A program made the translations under genes and the position numbers. A stretch of 64,000 nt of DNA from Escherichia phage JN02, in sequence record MT782071.1. One strand, 5' to 3'. The notes below the pieces were generated by a model. It was not told where the DNA came from, made no database searches, and was given only the letters and a program-made list of their open reading frames with translations. Shown here in pieces: positions 2,887-54,116 of the stretch (positions are counted from its first letter, which is position 1; each line of letters begins with the position of its first letter).

Positions 2887-5212
<2,326 letters not shown>

Positions 5213-11648: not shown

Positions 11649-13217
11649 ATGACTACTATCAAAACTAAAGCTCAGCTCGTAGACAAATGGAAAGAACTGC
11701 TGGAAGGTGAAGGCCTGCCGGAAATCGCTAATAGCAAGCAGGCTATTATCGCTAAAATCTTCGAAAACCAGGAAAAAGATTTCGAAGTATCCCCTGAATA
11801 TAAAGACGAGAAAATCGCTCAGGCATTTGGTTCTTTCTTGACCGAAGCTGAAATTGGTGGTGACCACGGTTATAATGCTCAGAACATCGCAGCAGGTCAA
11901 ACCTCTGGTGCAGTAACCCAAATTGGGCCAGCAGTTATGGGTATGGTTCGTCGTGCTATTCCTAATCTGATCGCTTTTGATATTTGTGGTGTTCAGCCTA
12001 TGAACAGCCCTACCGGTCAGGTATTTGCTCTCCGTGCAGTATATGGTAAAGACCCTATCGCTGCTGGCGCTAAAGAAGCTTTCCATCCGATGTATGCCCC
12101 AGACGCGATGTTCTCTGGTCAGGGTGCTGCTAAGAAATTCCCAGCTCTGGCTGCTGACACTACTACTGTTGTAGGTGATATCTATACTCACTTCTTCCAA
12201 GAAACTGGTACTGTATATCTGCAAGCTTCTGCTGTAGTAACACTTGATTCTGGTGCAACTGATGCAGCTAAATTAGATGCCGAAGTTAAGAAACACATGG
12301 AAGCTGGTGCACTGGTAGAAATCGCTGAAGGTATGGCTACTTCTATCGCTGAACTTCAGGAAGGCTTCAATGGTTCTACCGACAACCCGTGGAACGAAAT
12401 GGGCTTCCGTATCGACAAACAAGTTATTGAAGCTAAATCTCGCCAGCTGAAAGCTGCTTACTCCATCGAATTGGCACAAGACCTCCGTGCAGTACACGGT
12501 ATGGATGCTGATGCTGAACTGAGCGGTATTCTTGCTACTGAAATTATGCTAGAAATCAACCGTGAAGTTGTTGATTGGATTAACTACTCGGCACAGGTTG
12601 GTAAATCTGGTATGACCCTGACTCCGGGTTCTAAAGCTGGCGTATTTGACTTCCAGGACCCGATTGATATCCGTGGTGCTCGTTGGGCCGGTGAAAGCTT
12701 TAAATCTCTGTTGTTCCAGATTGATAAAGAAGCAGTTGAAATTGCTCGTCAAACCGGTCGTGGTGAAGGTAACTTCATTATCGCTTCCCGTAACGTAGTT
12801 AACGTACTGGCTTCAGTTGACACTGGTATTTCTTACGCTGCACAGGGTCTGGCTTCTGGTTTTAATACCGACACTACTAAGTCTGTATTTGCCGGTGTAC
12901 TTGGTGGTAAATACCGCGTATACATCGACCAGTATGCTAAACAGGATTACTTCACCGTTGGTTACAAAGGCGCTAACGAAATGGATGCAGGTATTTACTA
13001 TGCTCCTTACGTTGCACTTACCCCACTGCGTGGTTCCGATCCTAAGAACTTCCAGCCGGTAATGGGCTTTAAAACTCGTTACGGTATCGGTGTTAACCCG
13101 TTTGCTGAAAGTTCCCTGCAGGCTCCAGGTGCTCGCATCCAGTCCGGTATGCCGTCTATCCTGAACAGCCTTGGTAAGAACGCTTACTTCCGCCGTGTAT
13201 ATGTAAAAGGCATCTAA
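11649..13217 (+). CDS. 23: major capsid protein
   Basis: 522 aa; near-identical to T4 gp23 as recalled (MTTIKTKAQLVDKWKELLEGEGLPEIANSKQAIIAKIFENQEKDF...). Confidence 0.98.
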   Translation: MTTIKTKAQLVDKWKELLEGEGLPEIANSKQAIIAKIFENQEKDFEVSPEYKDEKIAQAFGSFLTEAEIGGDHGYNAQNIAAGQTSGAVTQIGPAVMGMVRRAIPNLIAFDICGVQPMNSPTGQVFALRAVYGKDPIAAGAKEAFHPMYAPDAMFSGQGAAKKFPALAADTTTVVGDIYTHFFQETGTVYLQASAVVTLDSGATDAAKLDAEVKKHMEAGALVEIAEGMATSIAELQEGFNGSTDNPWNEMGFRIDKQVIEAKSRQLKAAYSIELAQDLRAVHGMDADAELSGILATEIMLEINREVVDWINYSAQVGKSGMTLTPGSKAGVFDFQDPIDIRGARWAGESFKSLLFQIDKEAVEIARQTGRGEGNFIIASRNVVNVLASVDTGISYAAQGLASGFNTDTTKSVFAGVLGGKYRVYIDQYAKQDYFTVGYKGANEMDAGIYYAPYVALTPLRGSDPKNFQPVMGFKTRYGIGVNPFAESSLQAPGARIQSGMPSILNSLGKNAYFRRVYVKGI

Positions 13218-13241: not shown

Positions 13242-13267
13242 GGGAGACTTCGGTCTCCCTTTTTTGG
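13242..13267 (+). terminator. rho-independent terminator GGGAGAC-UUCG-GUCUCCC + U-run after gene 23
   Basis: Perfect 7-bp stem, UUCG tetraloop, then TTTTTTGG. Confidence 0.8.
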
Positions 13268-13269
13268 TT

Positions 13270-13539
13270 TTATTTCTGTGCAATTTCGATGTAAGTTTTC
13301 AAAATATTTTGCCAATTAGGCATACCTTCTTGGACATATGCCGGAGAGCCGTCTTTGTTTTTGAATGACGCAAGTTTATCAGTGGCCCAATAACCTTTAG
13401 CTCGAGCTTCAGAATCAACTTTCATCCATACTTTGTTGAAGGCATTACCATTAACTTTTGCACCATATTTTTCTACTAACTTAACTGCTTCAGCTTCTAG
13501 AACTTTTAAAGTATCTCGTAAGAAACGTGCTTTAGTCAT
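13270..13539 (-). CDS. hypothetical protein (89 aa), antisense to the capsid genes
   Basis: ATG preceded by GAGGAG; own sigma70-type early promoter upstream; occupies the 23-24 intergenic slot. Confidence 0.6.
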   Translation of the reverse strand: MTKARFLRDTLKVLEAEAVKLVEKYGAKVNGNAFNKVWMKVDSEARAKGYWATDKLASFKNKDGSPAYVQEGMPNWQNILKTYIEIAQK

Positions 13540-13569
13540 TTTGTTTACTCCTCTGTAGTTGATAAGTCT

Positions 13570-13600
13570 ATAGTATCACATACCAAATACGTTGTAAACA
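13570..13600 (-). promoter_or_regulatory. T4 early-type promoter (GTTTAC -35, 17-nt spacer, TGnTACTAT extended -10)
   Basis: Minus-strand tGTTTACAacgtatttggtatgTGATACTATagac; drives the 89-aa ORF. Confidence 0.6.
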
Positions 13601-13605
13601 ATCTT

Positions 13606-13613
13606 TATAAATA
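13606..13613 (+). promoter_or_regulatory. late promoter TATAAATA upstream of gene 24
   Basis: Exact TATAAATA about 27 nt before the gene 24 ATG. Confidence 0.55.
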
Positions 13614-13640
13614 ATCTATATCACATAAGGAAAAAATGCA

Positions 13641-14924
13641 ATGAGTAAAATCCAAAAATTATTGCGTGAATCTACAACGTCTACTAGCAACTCAATTGGT
13701 CGCCCAAATCTCGTTGCTTTGACTCGCGCTACGACTAAATTAATATATTCTGACATTGTAGCAACACAAAGAACTAATCAGCCTGTTGCTGCTTTTTATG
13801 GTATCAAATATCTTAACCCAGATAACGAATTCACATTTAAAACTGGTGCTACTTATGCGGGTGAAGTTGGATATGTAGACCGAGAAAAAATTACTGAGCT
13901 CACAGAAGAATCAAAAGTCACACTAAATAAAGGCGATTTTTTCAAATATAATAATATCGTCTATAAAGTGTTAGAAGATACACCATTTGCAGATATTCAA
14001 GAAAGTGATCTAGAATTAGCTCTTCAGATTGCAGTCGTTCATTTAAAGGTACGGTTATTTTCAGATGCAGCGGTAACAAGCAAATTTGAAAGCTCTGATA
14101 GCGAAATTTCTGATGCAAGATTCCAGATTAATAAATGGCAAACTTCAGTCAAATCTCGTAAACTTAAAACTGGACTCACGGTTGAATTAGCGCAAGATTT
14201 GGAAGCGAATGGATTTGATGCCCCTAACTTCTTAGAAGATTTGCTTGCTACTGAAATGGCCGATGAAATTAATAAAGATATTCTTCAGTCTTTAATTACT
14301 GTATCGAAACGTTATAAAGTTACTGGAATTACTGACACCGGATTTATTGACTTGAGCTATGCATCCGCTCCAGAAGCAGGACGTTCATTATATCGAATGG
14401 TGTGTGAAATGGTATCACACATTCAAAAAGAGACAACTTATACTGCAACGTTTTGTGTAGCCTCAGCTCGTGCAGCTGCTATTCTTGCTGCTTCTGGTTG
14501 GTTAAAACATAAGCCAGAAGATGACAAGTATCTTTCACAAAATGCTTATGGATTCTTGGCAAATGGATTACCTCTTTACTGTGATACCAACAGTCCGTTA
14601 GATTATGTTATTGTGGGTGTTGTAGAAAATATCGGCGAAAAAGAAATTGTAGGGTCCATCTTTTATGCTCCATACACTGAAGGAGTAGATTTAGATGACC
14701 CGGAACATGTTGGTGCATTTAAAGTTGTAGTTGATCCAGAAAGCTTGCAACCGTCTATCGGATTATTGGTTAGATATGCTTTATCAGCAAATCCTTACAC
14801 AGTAGCAAAAGACGAAAAAGAAGCGAGAATAATTGATGGTGGGGACATGGATAAAATGGCAGGACGTTCAGACTTGTCTGTTTTACTCGGTGTTAAATTG
14901 CCTAAAATTATTATAGATGAATAA
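13641..14924 (+). CDS. 24: capsid vertex protein
   Basis: 427 aa, same as T4 gp24; gp23-like fold signature; synteny. Confidence 0.95.
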   Translation: MSKIQKLLRESTTSTSNSIGRPNLVALTRATTKLIYSDIVATQRTNQPVAAFYGIKYLNPDNEFTFKTGATYAGEVGYVDREKITELTEESKVTLNKGDFFKYNNIVYKVLEDTPFADIQESDLELALQIAVVHLKVRLFSDAAVTSKFESSDSEISDARFQINKWQTSVKSRKLKTGLTVELAQDLEANGFDAPNFLEDLLATEMADEINKDILQSLITVSKRYKVTGITDTGFIDLSYASAPEAGRSLYRMVCEMVSHIQKETTYTATFCVASARAAAILAASGWLKHKPEDDKYLSQNAYGFLANGLPLYCDTNSPLDYVIVGVVENIGEKEIVGSIFYAPYTEGVDLDDPEHVGAFKVVVDPESLQPSIGLLVRYALSANPYTVAKDEKEARIIDGGDMDKMAGRSDLSVLLGVKLPKIIIDE

Positions 14925-16339: not shown

Positions 16340-16542
16340 TTCTTCACCTTTTTGTTAATCAAACGTTTACGGTATACAACTTTTTCTTTTGCTTTAAACT
16401 TTGACCGAGCTGTCTCGGCTTTAGTCCATAGTAATCCAACTTCTTTAGGTTGTAAACCAATTTTTTGAGCAATTTCTACGAATGAAAATCCCGCCTCATG
16501 TAATGTATAAACTTCAACTTCAGCTCTCATAATCAATCCCAT
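16336..16542 (-). CDS. hypothetical protein (68 aa) with possible helix-turn-helix
   Basis: Segment FSFVEIAQKIGLQPKEVGLLWTKA resembles an HTH; basic C-terminus. Confidence 0.45.
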   Translation of the reverse strand: MGLIMRAEVEVYTLHEAGFSFVEIAQKIGLQPKEVGLLWTKAETARSKFKAKEKVVYRKRLINKKVKK

Positions 16543-29207: not shown

Positions 29208-29238
29208 ATAGTATCACACATCCATGTGTTTGTAAACT
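29208..29238 (-). promoter_or_regulatory. T4 early-type promoter (GTTTACA, 17 nt, TGaTACTAT)
   Basis: Minus-strand aGTTTACAaacacatggatgtgTGATACTATcat, overlapping the alt stop codon. Confidence 0.6.
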
Positions 29239-35007: not shown

Positions 35008-35061
35008 ATTTTTCCACTTACTAAAGAAATCATTATACTCTAATCCGTCCTTGGATGTAAA

Positions 35062-35676
35062 CTACTTAACGAAATTAATTTCTACCGGATGAACAACAGG
35101 TTGAGCAGTGATATATTGAGTAATTGCTTTCATGACTAGAGCTTCAGAACCAGGATTTTTCTCAACGAATTCACGTGCTTGGTTATGGGCTTCGAGTTCA
35201 CTTAGTAAACCACTTCGTTGGCATCCACGGTCTTGAGTACCTTGTTCAGATAAAAAGACGACGATGTATTTTTCATCGTCATACGGTTTAGACGGTTGAG
35301 CAAATGTTCCTTTACTTCCAAAAGGAGAGTTATGACGCCACATCACGCCGTGAGGAGTTTCAACCTTCGTATATTCATGCGGGCCATTTTTCTTAGTTTC
35401 TTGATGTGGAACTTCGTAGACCTTAGGGTTAGGACATTCAATAAAATGCTCATCTAAATCGGTCGAGAATATTAAAGTAAAACAATGTCTGAATTTACCA
35501 ACACCTGCCTGATAAATTTTACCTTCAGAAGTTCTAATTTCACAAACTGAGCCGGCATCAGTAACTTCTAAAACTTCAAAAGGCTCAATAAGGTCATATG
35601 AGAACATGTTTTTAAGGCGTGGAGTAATATCCCCATTTTTAAAATTCATTTTATAAAAAGTATTAACTTTAAACAT
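35062..35676 (-). CDS. hypothetical protein (about 204 aa from ATG; track start is TTG)
   Basis: GAGGA RBS before the internal ATG (MFKVNTFYKMNF...). Confidence 0.5.
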   Translation of the reverse strand: MFKVNTFYKMNFKNGDITPRLKNMFSYDLIEPFEVLEVTDAGSVCEIRTSEGKIYQAGVGKFRHCFTLIFSTDLDEHFIECPNPKVYEVPHQETKKNGPHEYTKVETPHGVMWRHNSPFGSKGTFAQPSKPYDDEKYIVVFLSEQGTQDRGCQRSGLLSELEAHNQAREFVEKNPGSEALVMKAITQYITAQPVVHPVEINFVK

Positions 35677-40113: not shown

Positions 40114-40143
40114 ATAGTATCACAACTCCACCGTGTTGTAAAC
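40114..40143 (-). promoter_or_regulatory. T4 early-type promoter (GTTTACA, 18 nt, TGaTACTAT)
   Basis: Minus-strand aGTTTACAacacggtggagttgTGATACTATaac. Confidence 0.55.
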
Positions 40144-42239: not shown

Positions 42240-42269
42240 ATTATACTCTGCTCCCGAGAGTTTGTAAAC
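42240..42269 (-). promoter_or_regulatory. T4 early-type promoter (GTTTACA, 18 nt, TATAAT)
   Basis: Minus-strand GTTTACAaactctcgggagcagagTATAATgct. Confidence 0.6.
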
Positions 42270-43645: not shown

Positions 43646-43675
43646 ATAGTAACACCTTCCTTGGTGTTTGTAAAC
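43646..43675 (-). promoter_or_regulatory. T4 early-type promoter (GTTTACA, 18 nt, TGtTACTAT)
   Basis: Minus-strand GTTTACAaacaccaaggaaggtgTTACTATggc. Confidence 0.55.
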
Positions 43676-44811: not shown

Positions 44812-44857
44812 TCAGTTAGTTTTTTTAAATTGTACCACAATCCTTGTGGTATGTAAA

Positions 44858-45268
44858 CTACTTTTTCTTATGTTGGATATTCCAAGGCGGGTTGAACTTT
44901 TTGATAAAAAGCGGTTCTTCAAGGTCCATTGTTGCGATGGTCATTGAACCAAGTTCGTTGGTGACTGAAAGGTCAAAACATTGGCGGGCCCAGAATTCAA
45001 CCTTTTTGCCTTGCATTAAGGCATCCAAAATCATAAGTGATTTTCTTGAATCTGAAGTCTGGTCTTTTCGATTTATGGCTGTTCGATAATAGTTAATGCG
45101 TTTCTTTAAATTCTTGGTTTTACCAATATACACAAGTTCGTCATCTATAGCAATAGCGTATATGACATTTTTCTTATTAGGGACATCAACTGTTTTAATT
45201 GTTGCATCTTCTAATAGCTCCAATTCTGTATATTTAATAAAGGAATATTCGGCGGCAATATCTTTCAT
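44858..45268 (-). CDS. denA: endonuclease II (GIY-YIG family)
   Basis: 136 aa, same as T4 EndoII; GIY-YIG-like VIYAIAIDDELVYIGKT; position between rnlA and nrdB. Confidence 0.7.
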   Translation of the reverse strand: MKDIAAEYSFIKYTELELLEDATIKTVDVPNKKNVIYAIAIDDELVYIGKTKNLKKRINYYRTAINRKDQTSDSRKSLMILDALMQGKKVEFWARQCFDLSVTNELGSMTIATMDLEEPLFIKKFNPPWNIQHKKK

Positions 45269-53534: not shown

Positions 53535-53869
53535 AATAAGAAATCTAACGTATTAGTTTTTTCACCACGAGCAACTGATGGACGAAGCATGTTTTCGTCA
53601 ATTGCTTCGCTTGTAATTTTTTCAACAATTCCGGTAGGAATAAATTTAGCAAATTGTGTTTCTGGAATAGAATTTTCTTCCAAGAAAGCAGTTGTTGCTT
53701 CTAAATAAGACATACCAAATTGTTCAACCATGGATTCGATAATGAATCCATTTTCTTGTCGGTCAAGCAATTTAGCGATATCATCTTTATCGTGTTTTAC
53801 TGCTAATTCTTGTTCAGATAAACCGGCCTCATCAACCGGTTTAATATCACTTAGTGAAAACTGTGTCAT
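53531..53869 (-). CDS. 33: late transcription accessory protein gp33
   Basis: 112 aa, same as T4 gp33; synteny. Confidence 0.93.
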   Translation of the reverse strand: MTQFSLSDIKPVDEAGLSEQELAVKHDKDDIAKLLDRQENGFIIESMVEQFGMSYLEATTAFLEENSIPETQFAKFIPTGIVEKITSEAIDENMLRPSVARGEKTNTLDFLL

Positions 53870-54116
53870 AAAGCTCGACTACCTCTTCGTTTTCAGCTTC
53901 AAATTGGTCACGAGCGTCTTTATGATAAAGAGCTAACAAACGATTAAACATTTTTCCATCGACGCCAAGCTCTTCTTTAGCACGAGTACGAATGTCTTTA
54001 ATCAGTTCATTATAACCAGAAATTTTAAGTTTGTTATCGGAAGCTTCCTTGACTAGTTTAGCCAGTTCTTCACCATGCACATCTTGATTAAATTCAACTG
54101 CTTCTTTCTTAGCCAT
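53847..54116 (-). CDS. dsbA: double-stranded DNA-binding protein DsbA (from internal ATG)
   Basis: 89 aa from MAKKEAVEF..., same as T4 DsbA; position between rnh and 33. Confidence 0.8.
   Translation of the reverse strand: MAKKEAVEFNQDVHGEELAKLVKEASDNKLKISGYNELIKDIRTRAKEELGVDGKMFNRLLALYHKDARDQFEAENEEVVELYDTVFTK

Follow-up and report, generated by a model that had tools for sequence, protein, structure and literature searches.

Organization of the Gene 23/Gene 24 Intergenic Region

The stretch of DNA analyzed here, 64,000 nucleotides of Escherichia phage JN02 (MT782071.1) and referred to below as the window, comes from a Mosigvirus, an RB69-like T-even phage, and the 551 bases around the feature under study are at least 99% identical to many Mosigvirus genomes. 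In the intergenic slot between the genes for the major capsid protein and the capsid vertex protein lies a self-contained minus-strand cassette, in which an 89-aa ORF is bounded on one side by an early promoter-leader-Shine-Dalgarno (SD) module and on the other by the gene 23 terminator hairpin (Table 1). All elements of the original prediction were recovered at this locus: the minus-strand ORF with its GAGGAG ribosome-binding site in the interval from the gene 23 terminator to the gene 24 late promoter, and an early promoter said to lie back-to-back with that late promoter within about 6 nt, the gap between the G of the early -35 element and TATAAATA being 6 nt. The observation is confirmed, its interpretation is partly supported, and the feature itself was already known as an annotated hypothetical gene. 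As a gene call it adds nothing to public annotation: the record of phage vB_EcoM_SA79RD (OL960576.1) already has the ORF, the late promoter TATAAATA and terminators on each strand, along with a site labelled "T4 early promoter-like."

Table 1. Features of the gene 23/gene 24 intergenic slot and its flanks (window coordinates).
Feature	Position	Strand	Remarks
Gene 23 (major capsid protein)	11649..13217	+	Left flank of slot; 94.6% identity to T4 gp23
Gene 23 intrinsic terminator	13242..13265	+	7-bp hairpin GGGAGAC-UUCG-GUCUCCC (13242-13259), then TTTTTT; terminator scan
89-aa ORF, including stop	13270..13539	-	ATG 13539, stop 13270-13272; RB69ORF188c orthologue, PHROG 6003; 10.1 kDa, pI 9.6
Shine-Dalgarno GAGGAG	13548..13553	-	8 nt upstream of ORF ATG; read from sequence
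T4-type early (sigma-70) promoter	13570..13599	-	-35 (G)TTTACA 13599..13593, 17-nt spacer, TG-extended -10 TACTAT 13575..13570
Gene 24 late promoter TATAAATA	13606..13613	+	Read from sequence; invariant across lineages; annotated in OL960576.1
Gene 24 (capsid vertex protein)	13641..14924	+	Right flank of slot; ATG 13641; 95.3% identity to T4 gp24

The terminator hairpin forms a conserved 3' boundary of the minus-strand cassette, with one and the same sequence in four of the five phages compared: the window, WG01 and the metagenomic T4-like phages L010 and L011. Read on the minus strand, the same hairpin folds at -14.1 kcal/mol without a U-tract after it, and the next terminator-like site past the ORF on that strand, according to the terminator scan, lies only at about 12157. 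An Rfam search of the locus returned no family above its gathering score.

The Early Promoter and Its Relatives

The ORF had been predicted to have its own sigma70-type early promoter, and as a sequence element this promoter (GTTTACA-N17-TG-TACTAT) is present. It has the full set of features of early promoters, namely a GTTTAC -35, a 17-nt spacer, a TAnnAT -10 with an upstream TG, and A/T-rich DNA upstream (91% A+T in the 22 nt before it). It also fits the T4/PST early consensus TTTACW-N17-TAYWAT, which is followed by an SD and a start codon (PMC4122927). The minus (early) strand of the 64-kb window contains seven copies of the composite GTTTACA-N17-TA[CT][AT]AT and the plus strand none, against 0.045 copies expected from shuffles for both strands together. 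A generic sigma-70 scan alone gave no significant excess (3 sites vs. 3.7 expected), and it is the phage-specific consensus, together with conservation across lineages, that supports the promoter. The element stands in register in Mosigvirus, Dhakavirus, Gaprivervirus, L010 and L011, as well as upstream of T4 segD. In VR20, WG01, L010, L011 and the window the late promoter, -35, spacing, -10, SD and AAAATG start all align without a gap, and the SD core, GGAG or GAGG, is kept in five lineages. Transcription is predicted to start near 13563, and TATAAATA probably shares sequence with the A/T-rich stretch preceding the early -35, the usual place of an UP element.

Further GTTTACA-N17/18-TA..AT copies were located on the minus strand at window positions 16428-16457, 29208-29237, 35032-35062, 40114-40143, 42240-42269, 43646-43675 and 44829-44858, with none on the plus strand. 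Several of them carry the same leader and SD (..ATCAACAAC..GAGGA..; ATCAAC...GAGGA) as the ORF promoter. Given this common leader, the ORF promoter is one of the phage's stereotyped early promoter-leader-SD units.

If these elements act as their sequences suggest, unmodified host sigma-70 RNA polymerase would transcribe the ORF in the first minutes of infection, in the direction opposite to the late capsid genes, and the TATAAATA late promoter would later take over the shared A/T-rich DNA in the other direction. Such an arrangement could also mean that the antisense promoter is what matters and that the ORF is incidental: an "anti-late" RNA would run into the 3' end of gene 23, and early transcription from a promoter only 6 nt from TATAAATA may also occupy DNA beside that late promoter, helping to keep capsid expression off early. 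Transcription could plausibly continue into gene 23, since the minus-strand hairpin lacks a U-tract and no terminator-like site follows until about 12157. Moreover, the promoter module is kept even in T4, where segD replaces the ORF, and T4 records annotate minus-direction primer RNAs opposite late genes at oriE and oriG. We nevertheless regard this explanation as improbable. Selection on the protein is evident from dN/dS values of 0.04-0.32 and from a conserved, confidently modeled fold, and the non-T4 homologues are nowhere near capsid genes. In addition, the early promoter is missing from most Tequatrovirus and Jiaodavirus phages, which shows that genes 23 and 24 can be controlled without it.

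A Conserved Accessory Gene

The ORF represents, in Mosigvirus, the conserved accessory gene RB69ORF188c, which codes for a protein. Its product matches PHROG 6003, a family of unknown function, over its full length (residues 1-89 against positions 1-90 of the 90-position profile; E 2.1e-45). The divergent members P0017, P0019, P0025, P0029 and P0012 match the family too, and the record of phage PhAPEC2 labels its orthologue "similar to RB69ORF188c" (RB69ORF188c = NP_861878.1). The exact window protein is encoded on 262 contigs, each time under the name "hypothetical protein," and a literature search found no mention of RB69ORF188c or phrog_6003. One 90-aa member (P0006) is named "NADPH-dependent curcumin reductase CurA" in a JGI record, evidently a mis-transferred annotation.

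By tblastn the ORF was detected in 239 phage records, which fall into two allele classes: 120 records at 80% identity or more, and 119 at 30-38%. The latter are mainly Dhakavirus and Gaprivervirus, with the same slot and orientation in the loci examined. Antisense placement between genes 23 and 24 was seen in PhAPEC2, VR20 (Gaprivervirus), WG01 (Dhakavirus), L010, L011 and AV110, and a sampled listing contained no Mosigvirus-like record with an empty slot. Profile searches yielded about 25 distinct full-length family members. Those outside the T-evens lie within runs of small genes, mostly without Pfam matches, in the Vequintavirinae phage ABPH49, a 141-kb contig and a 35-kb contig; we read these runs as probable early-gene arrays. 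Another member, in a 50-kb contig, adjoins primase-polymerase, NinX and Ead/Ea22-type genes.

The gene is also missing from some phages. It is absent from T4 and from the empty-slot phages RB3 and JD18, and a profile search of ORFs, covering the window and T4 outside positions 100001-102999 and 166001-168903, found no T4 homologue or paralogue and no second copy elsewhere in the window. On the question of homology to a conserved known T4 ORF, on which the original prediction hung, the outcome was therefore split: T4 itself has no homologue, but the ORF is a conserved, catalogued T-even ORF. Two scans of representative bacterial genomes gave no bacterial or prophage copies. In phage mogra (MN850579.1, 65653-65918) the ORF is split into two annotated hypothetical proteins, one of them (mogra_95, P0007) a 51-aa fragment. 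Either a sequencing error or a frameshift or pseudogene lies behind the split, which, if real, makes the gene dispensable for propagation. Taken together, the absence from T4, the split in mogra and the scattered non-T-even members, with none in bacterial genomes, mark PHROG 6003 as a probably horizontally mobile, dispensable accessory gene, and the ORF appears to be dispensable for the core lytic cycle.

Occupants of the Slot

The original prediction described the 23/24 interval as an apparent insertion hotspot, occupied by segD in T4 and by different cargo here. T4 does hold segD there, also antisense, as do T6 and about 50 more records (53 in all). In RB3 and in the Jiaodavirus JD18 the slot is empty (about 14 nt separate the terminator from TATAAATA, and there is no early promoter), and most Tequatrovirus records likewise have an empty slot, judged from a short match span like that of RB3. 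The Pseudotevenvirus IME-CF2 has a third type of occupant, a homing endonuclease gene on the plus strand like the capsid genes (L014 3247-3885), and the Mosigvirus LF82-4 carries the ORF together with a segD-like endonuclease. The slot is thus variable among T-even phages, as predicted, and the ORF is a long-standing occupant of it rather than a novelty: the part of the claim that implied a novel or recent insertion was not supported, given a catalogued family (PHROG 6003), about 120 records and conserved synteny.

A recent insertion of foreign cargo specific to JN02 can accordingly be regarded as extremely unlikely. The slot does vary among T-even phages, and the GC content of the ORF (36%) differs from that of gene 23 (46%), but it matches gene 24 (37%) and the window (38%), and the gene occurs throughout Mosigvirus and is syntenic in two more genera with its promoter in register. 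No flanking target-site duplication and no convincing terminal repeats were found around the cassette. The sole candidate for transposon-like ends, a 26-nt A/T-rich inverted pair at window 13261-13286 and 13633-13658 (73% complementary), was judged to be due to chance because its right arm sits in the gene 24 RBS/start region.

The T4 version of the slot resembles that of JN02 beyond position and orientation. Upstream of segD lies TTTACA-17-TG-TATTAT, with 10 matches out of 12 (L002 4254-4282; T4 NC_000866 about 107253-107281, minus strand), and this promoter, GGAG and AAAATG line up, in register, with promoter, SD and start codon in the ORF family, so that the two loci share a homologous promoter-RBS-ATG module. 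Their cargo is unrelated: SegD is a 223-aa GIY-YIG endonuclease and the ORF product an 89-aa helical protein without a nuclease motif, no PHROG 6003 member being present in T4. The simplest reading of the alignment would be that segD took the place of the ORF while the early promoter was retained. A 2010 review of T4 mobile elements reported that a segD-specific promoter could not be found and that the segD transcript is probably vanishingly low (PMC2988022). With a promoter homologue upstream of it, the "promoter-less" segD may instead be early-transcribed.

On the other flank of the slot, Dhakavirus, Gaprivervirus and the two metagenomic T4-like phages have two tandem gene 24 (vertex protein) paralogues (L003 830-3394, L004 836-3399, L010 1337-3901, L011 1338-3897), while the window and T4 have one copy.

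Exchange of Alleles Through the Slot

Divergence within the cassette is out of step with that of its neighbors. Between the window and Dhakavirus WG01, identity is 84% for gp23 and 70% for gp24, and 33% for the ORF. Looser constraint, rather than an arms race, could account for the low ORF identity relative to gp23. In L010, Dhaka-like flanks (gp23 and gp24 92% and 93% identical to those of WG01) enclose a Mosig-type ORF (4001-4273; 62% identity to the window, 27% to WG01), showing an ORF allele decoupled from its capsid-gene flanks. LF82-4 presents the reciprocal combination (PV660448.1; L027 2076-3060). It carries the window's promoter up to GAGGAG and then a Dhaka-type ORF, 94% identical to that of WG01 and about 31% to that of the window, followed 3 nt later by a separate ORF for a 219-aa GIY-YIG protein (57% identity to T4 SegD). 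Past the endonuclease gene come a terminator and a gene 23 3' end resembling the Dhaka/Gapriver versions. A Dhaka-type ORF behind a Mosigvirus promoter shows that, within one genetic background, either allele class can take the place of the other.

ORF alleles, these comparisons show, have been swapped between lineages. LF82-4 would be the product expected if a homing endonuclease had driven co-conversion of the ORF together with the 3' end of gene 23, and the apparent junction can be mapped to the RBS. The conserved cassette boundaries could serve as homology arms for the exchange of ORF alleles and other cargo between T-even lineages, and homing, where a segD-like endonuclease gene directly follows the ORF, may also drive such exchange. 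The slot provides a clean natural example of cassette and allele exchange within an otherwise vertically inherited capsid module.

The proximity of the two genes in LF82-4 might suggest a closer tie, in which the ORF is a helper, regulator or protection factor of a SegD-type homing endonuclease and persists as a remnant where the endonuclease has been lost. In LF82-4 the ORF and the SegD-like GIY-YIG gene form one operon behind the same promoter; the T4 segD start falls at the exact position of the expected ORF start; and in one contig (L006) a family member is preceded, two genes upstream, by a gene with a T5orf172/MUG113 domain. Against this, no endonuclease occupies the slot at the Mosig-type, Dhakavirus and Gaprivervirus loci examined, T4 possesses segD but lacks the ORF, and a requirement for partners is not known among free-standing homing endonucleases (PMC2988022). 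We consider such a tie very unlikely.

The cassette also invites comparison with the promoter-early stem-loop (PeSL) modules of T4-type phages (PMC2839356; PMC4122927). Like them, it combines a promoter fitting TTTACW-N17-TAYWAT, A/T-rich DNA upstream, and an SD and start codon 3' of the promoter (PMC4122927), and PeSL cassettes are linked to gene replacement between related phages, as seen at the 23/24 slot. The ORF promoter differs in having no stem-loop directly upstream, the 70 nt upstream folding like shuffled sequence (z -0.26); the only strong hairpin at the locus is the gene 23 terminator, downstream of the ORF. Further, the locus has a single module rather than a tandem pair, and its place is within the structural core, a region reported to contain fewer PeSL groupings.

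The Encoded Protein

The ORF is under purifying selection, with pairwise dN/dS of 0.04-0.07 in two unsaturated pairs and 0.12-0.32 in deeper pairs. AlphaFold2, supplied with a 24-sequence alignment, modeled the window protein at a pLDDT of 94.3 with helices at residues 3-25, 31-48 and 76-88 and a beta-hairpin at 52-60/66-70, and the model of the Dhaka-type allele has an identical topology (pLDDT 94.7). The product is thus confidently predicted to be a compact 10-kDa three-helix bundle with a beta-hairpin. Basic charge is conserved, with a pI of 9.2-9.9 in 23 of 24 members. Residues M1, K3, F6, G31, N32, N35 and Q70 are invariant, and N30 and L14 nearly so; K3, G31-N32, N35 and Q70, with N30 nearly invariant, make up the invariant polar set. 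The protein has no catalytic motif, and conservation of the Asn, Gly and Gln residues could stem from a purely structural role as helix caps.

The original prediction had recognized no motif in the protein, and Pfam, NCBIfam, PADLOC, PDB and Foldseek searches agreed with it in giving no informative relative. Pfam and NCBIfam returned no family for the ORF protein, and the PADLOC-DB defence profiles matched none of five diverse members. A sequence profile search of the PDB gave a best E of 0.22, Foldseek against the PDB a best E no lower than 0.6, and Foldseek against BFVD a family member only. No helix-turn-helix or other nucleic-acid-binding family was detected, and the GIY-YIG catalytic domain is absent from the 89-aa protein (no Pfam or NCBIfam match; helical bundle and hairpin in the model).

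Several candidate relatives were discarded. Pfam DUF4859 (PF16151) scored 17.9 bits against a gathering cut-off of 22.6 and gave any match at all in two of 24 members; being both sub-threshold and so restricted, it was taken as noise. Two repeat proteins came out of a HMMER scan of 1.8 billion representatives. In one, of 2191 aa (P0009, 10 matched stretches), the similarity proved short, weak and repeat-amplified on pairwise alignment; in the other, of 655 aa (P0011, four matched stretches), it was of the same short, weak and repeat-amplified kind, and the matched motif is not conserved in the Dhaka/Gapriver alleles. T4 DsbA (PF11126), annotated as a dsDNA-binding protein, reached an hhalign probability of 1.1% over 18 columns, in a register unlike that of the single-sequence matches. 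The Mosigvirus DsbA orthologue is itself an 89-aa PF11126 protein encoded at window 53850-54116 on the minus strand. This orthologue (V-D-G-K-M-F-N) and the ORF family (V-N-G-N-A-F-N) have in common the V-[DN]-G-x-x-F-N motif that T4 DsbA also shares, without profile-profile homology.

Possible Functions

The explanation that we favor, at odds slightly better than even (about 0.55), is that the locus holds a conserved RB69ORF188c cassette that is transcribed early, is exchanged through the 23/24 slot, and encodes a stoichiometric binder. Its functional component is the more tentative part: with a likelihood somewhat short of even, the product would bind a host protein or nucleic acid in the service of host takeover or counter-defence. 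This suggestion draws on the early promoter, the small size of the protein, the lack of a catalytic motif, the conserved basic charge, the accessory distribution, and the company of small early genes. Parallels can be found among the small early T4 proteins Arn, Dmd, AsiA and Srd, which resemble the ORF product in size class, predicted early timing and accessory distribution, in part according to T4 annotation. The ORF protein differs in being basic, unlike the acidic Arn-type DNA mimics, and resembles no T4 ORF in sequence. A role in capsid assembly, which the location might bring to mind, was considered unlikely because homologues in non-T4 phages are not beside capsid genes.

Conserved basic charge would fit a phage-directed regulator of nucleic acids equally well, and the target may accordingly lie on the phage side: a small basic DNA- or RNA-binding protein acting on phage transcription or translation rather than on the host. 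That the basic pI is kept in 23 of 24 members across about 30% sequence identity speaks for such a regulator, as does a small, helical, predicted early protein with no catalytic motif. The searches for a helix-turn-helix or other nucleic-acid-binding family came back empty, though, the weak motif match to DsbA fell to 1% probability in an inconsistent register on profile-profile comparison, and the family is also found in unrelated phage types whose regulation differs. We judge a phage-directed regulator to be unlikely, and a host-directed binder remains our preferred, if tentative, reading.

A bolder and rather doubtful version of the host-directed reading joins several of these threads. PHROG 6003 would be an orphan-fold early effector of which two allele classes, at about 30% identity, circulate through the slot, partly by SegD-like co-conversion, with segD itself early-transcribed. 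Were this so, the choice of allele might affect host range, and T4 segD, far from being transcriptionally silent, would owe its expression to an inherited early promoter.

Among sampled listings, every Mosigvirus-like record contains this well-conserved, predicted early gene with a confidently modeled orphan fold, and several Mosigviruses among the matches are described as biocontrol candidates, which makes the gene a reasonable target for deletion and interaction screens. A 2026 preprint reportedly presents a screen of early-expressed proteins of Mosigvirus AV110 ("Emp"). AV110 carries a homologue of the ORF, hypothetical protein WPK33856.1, in the same slot.
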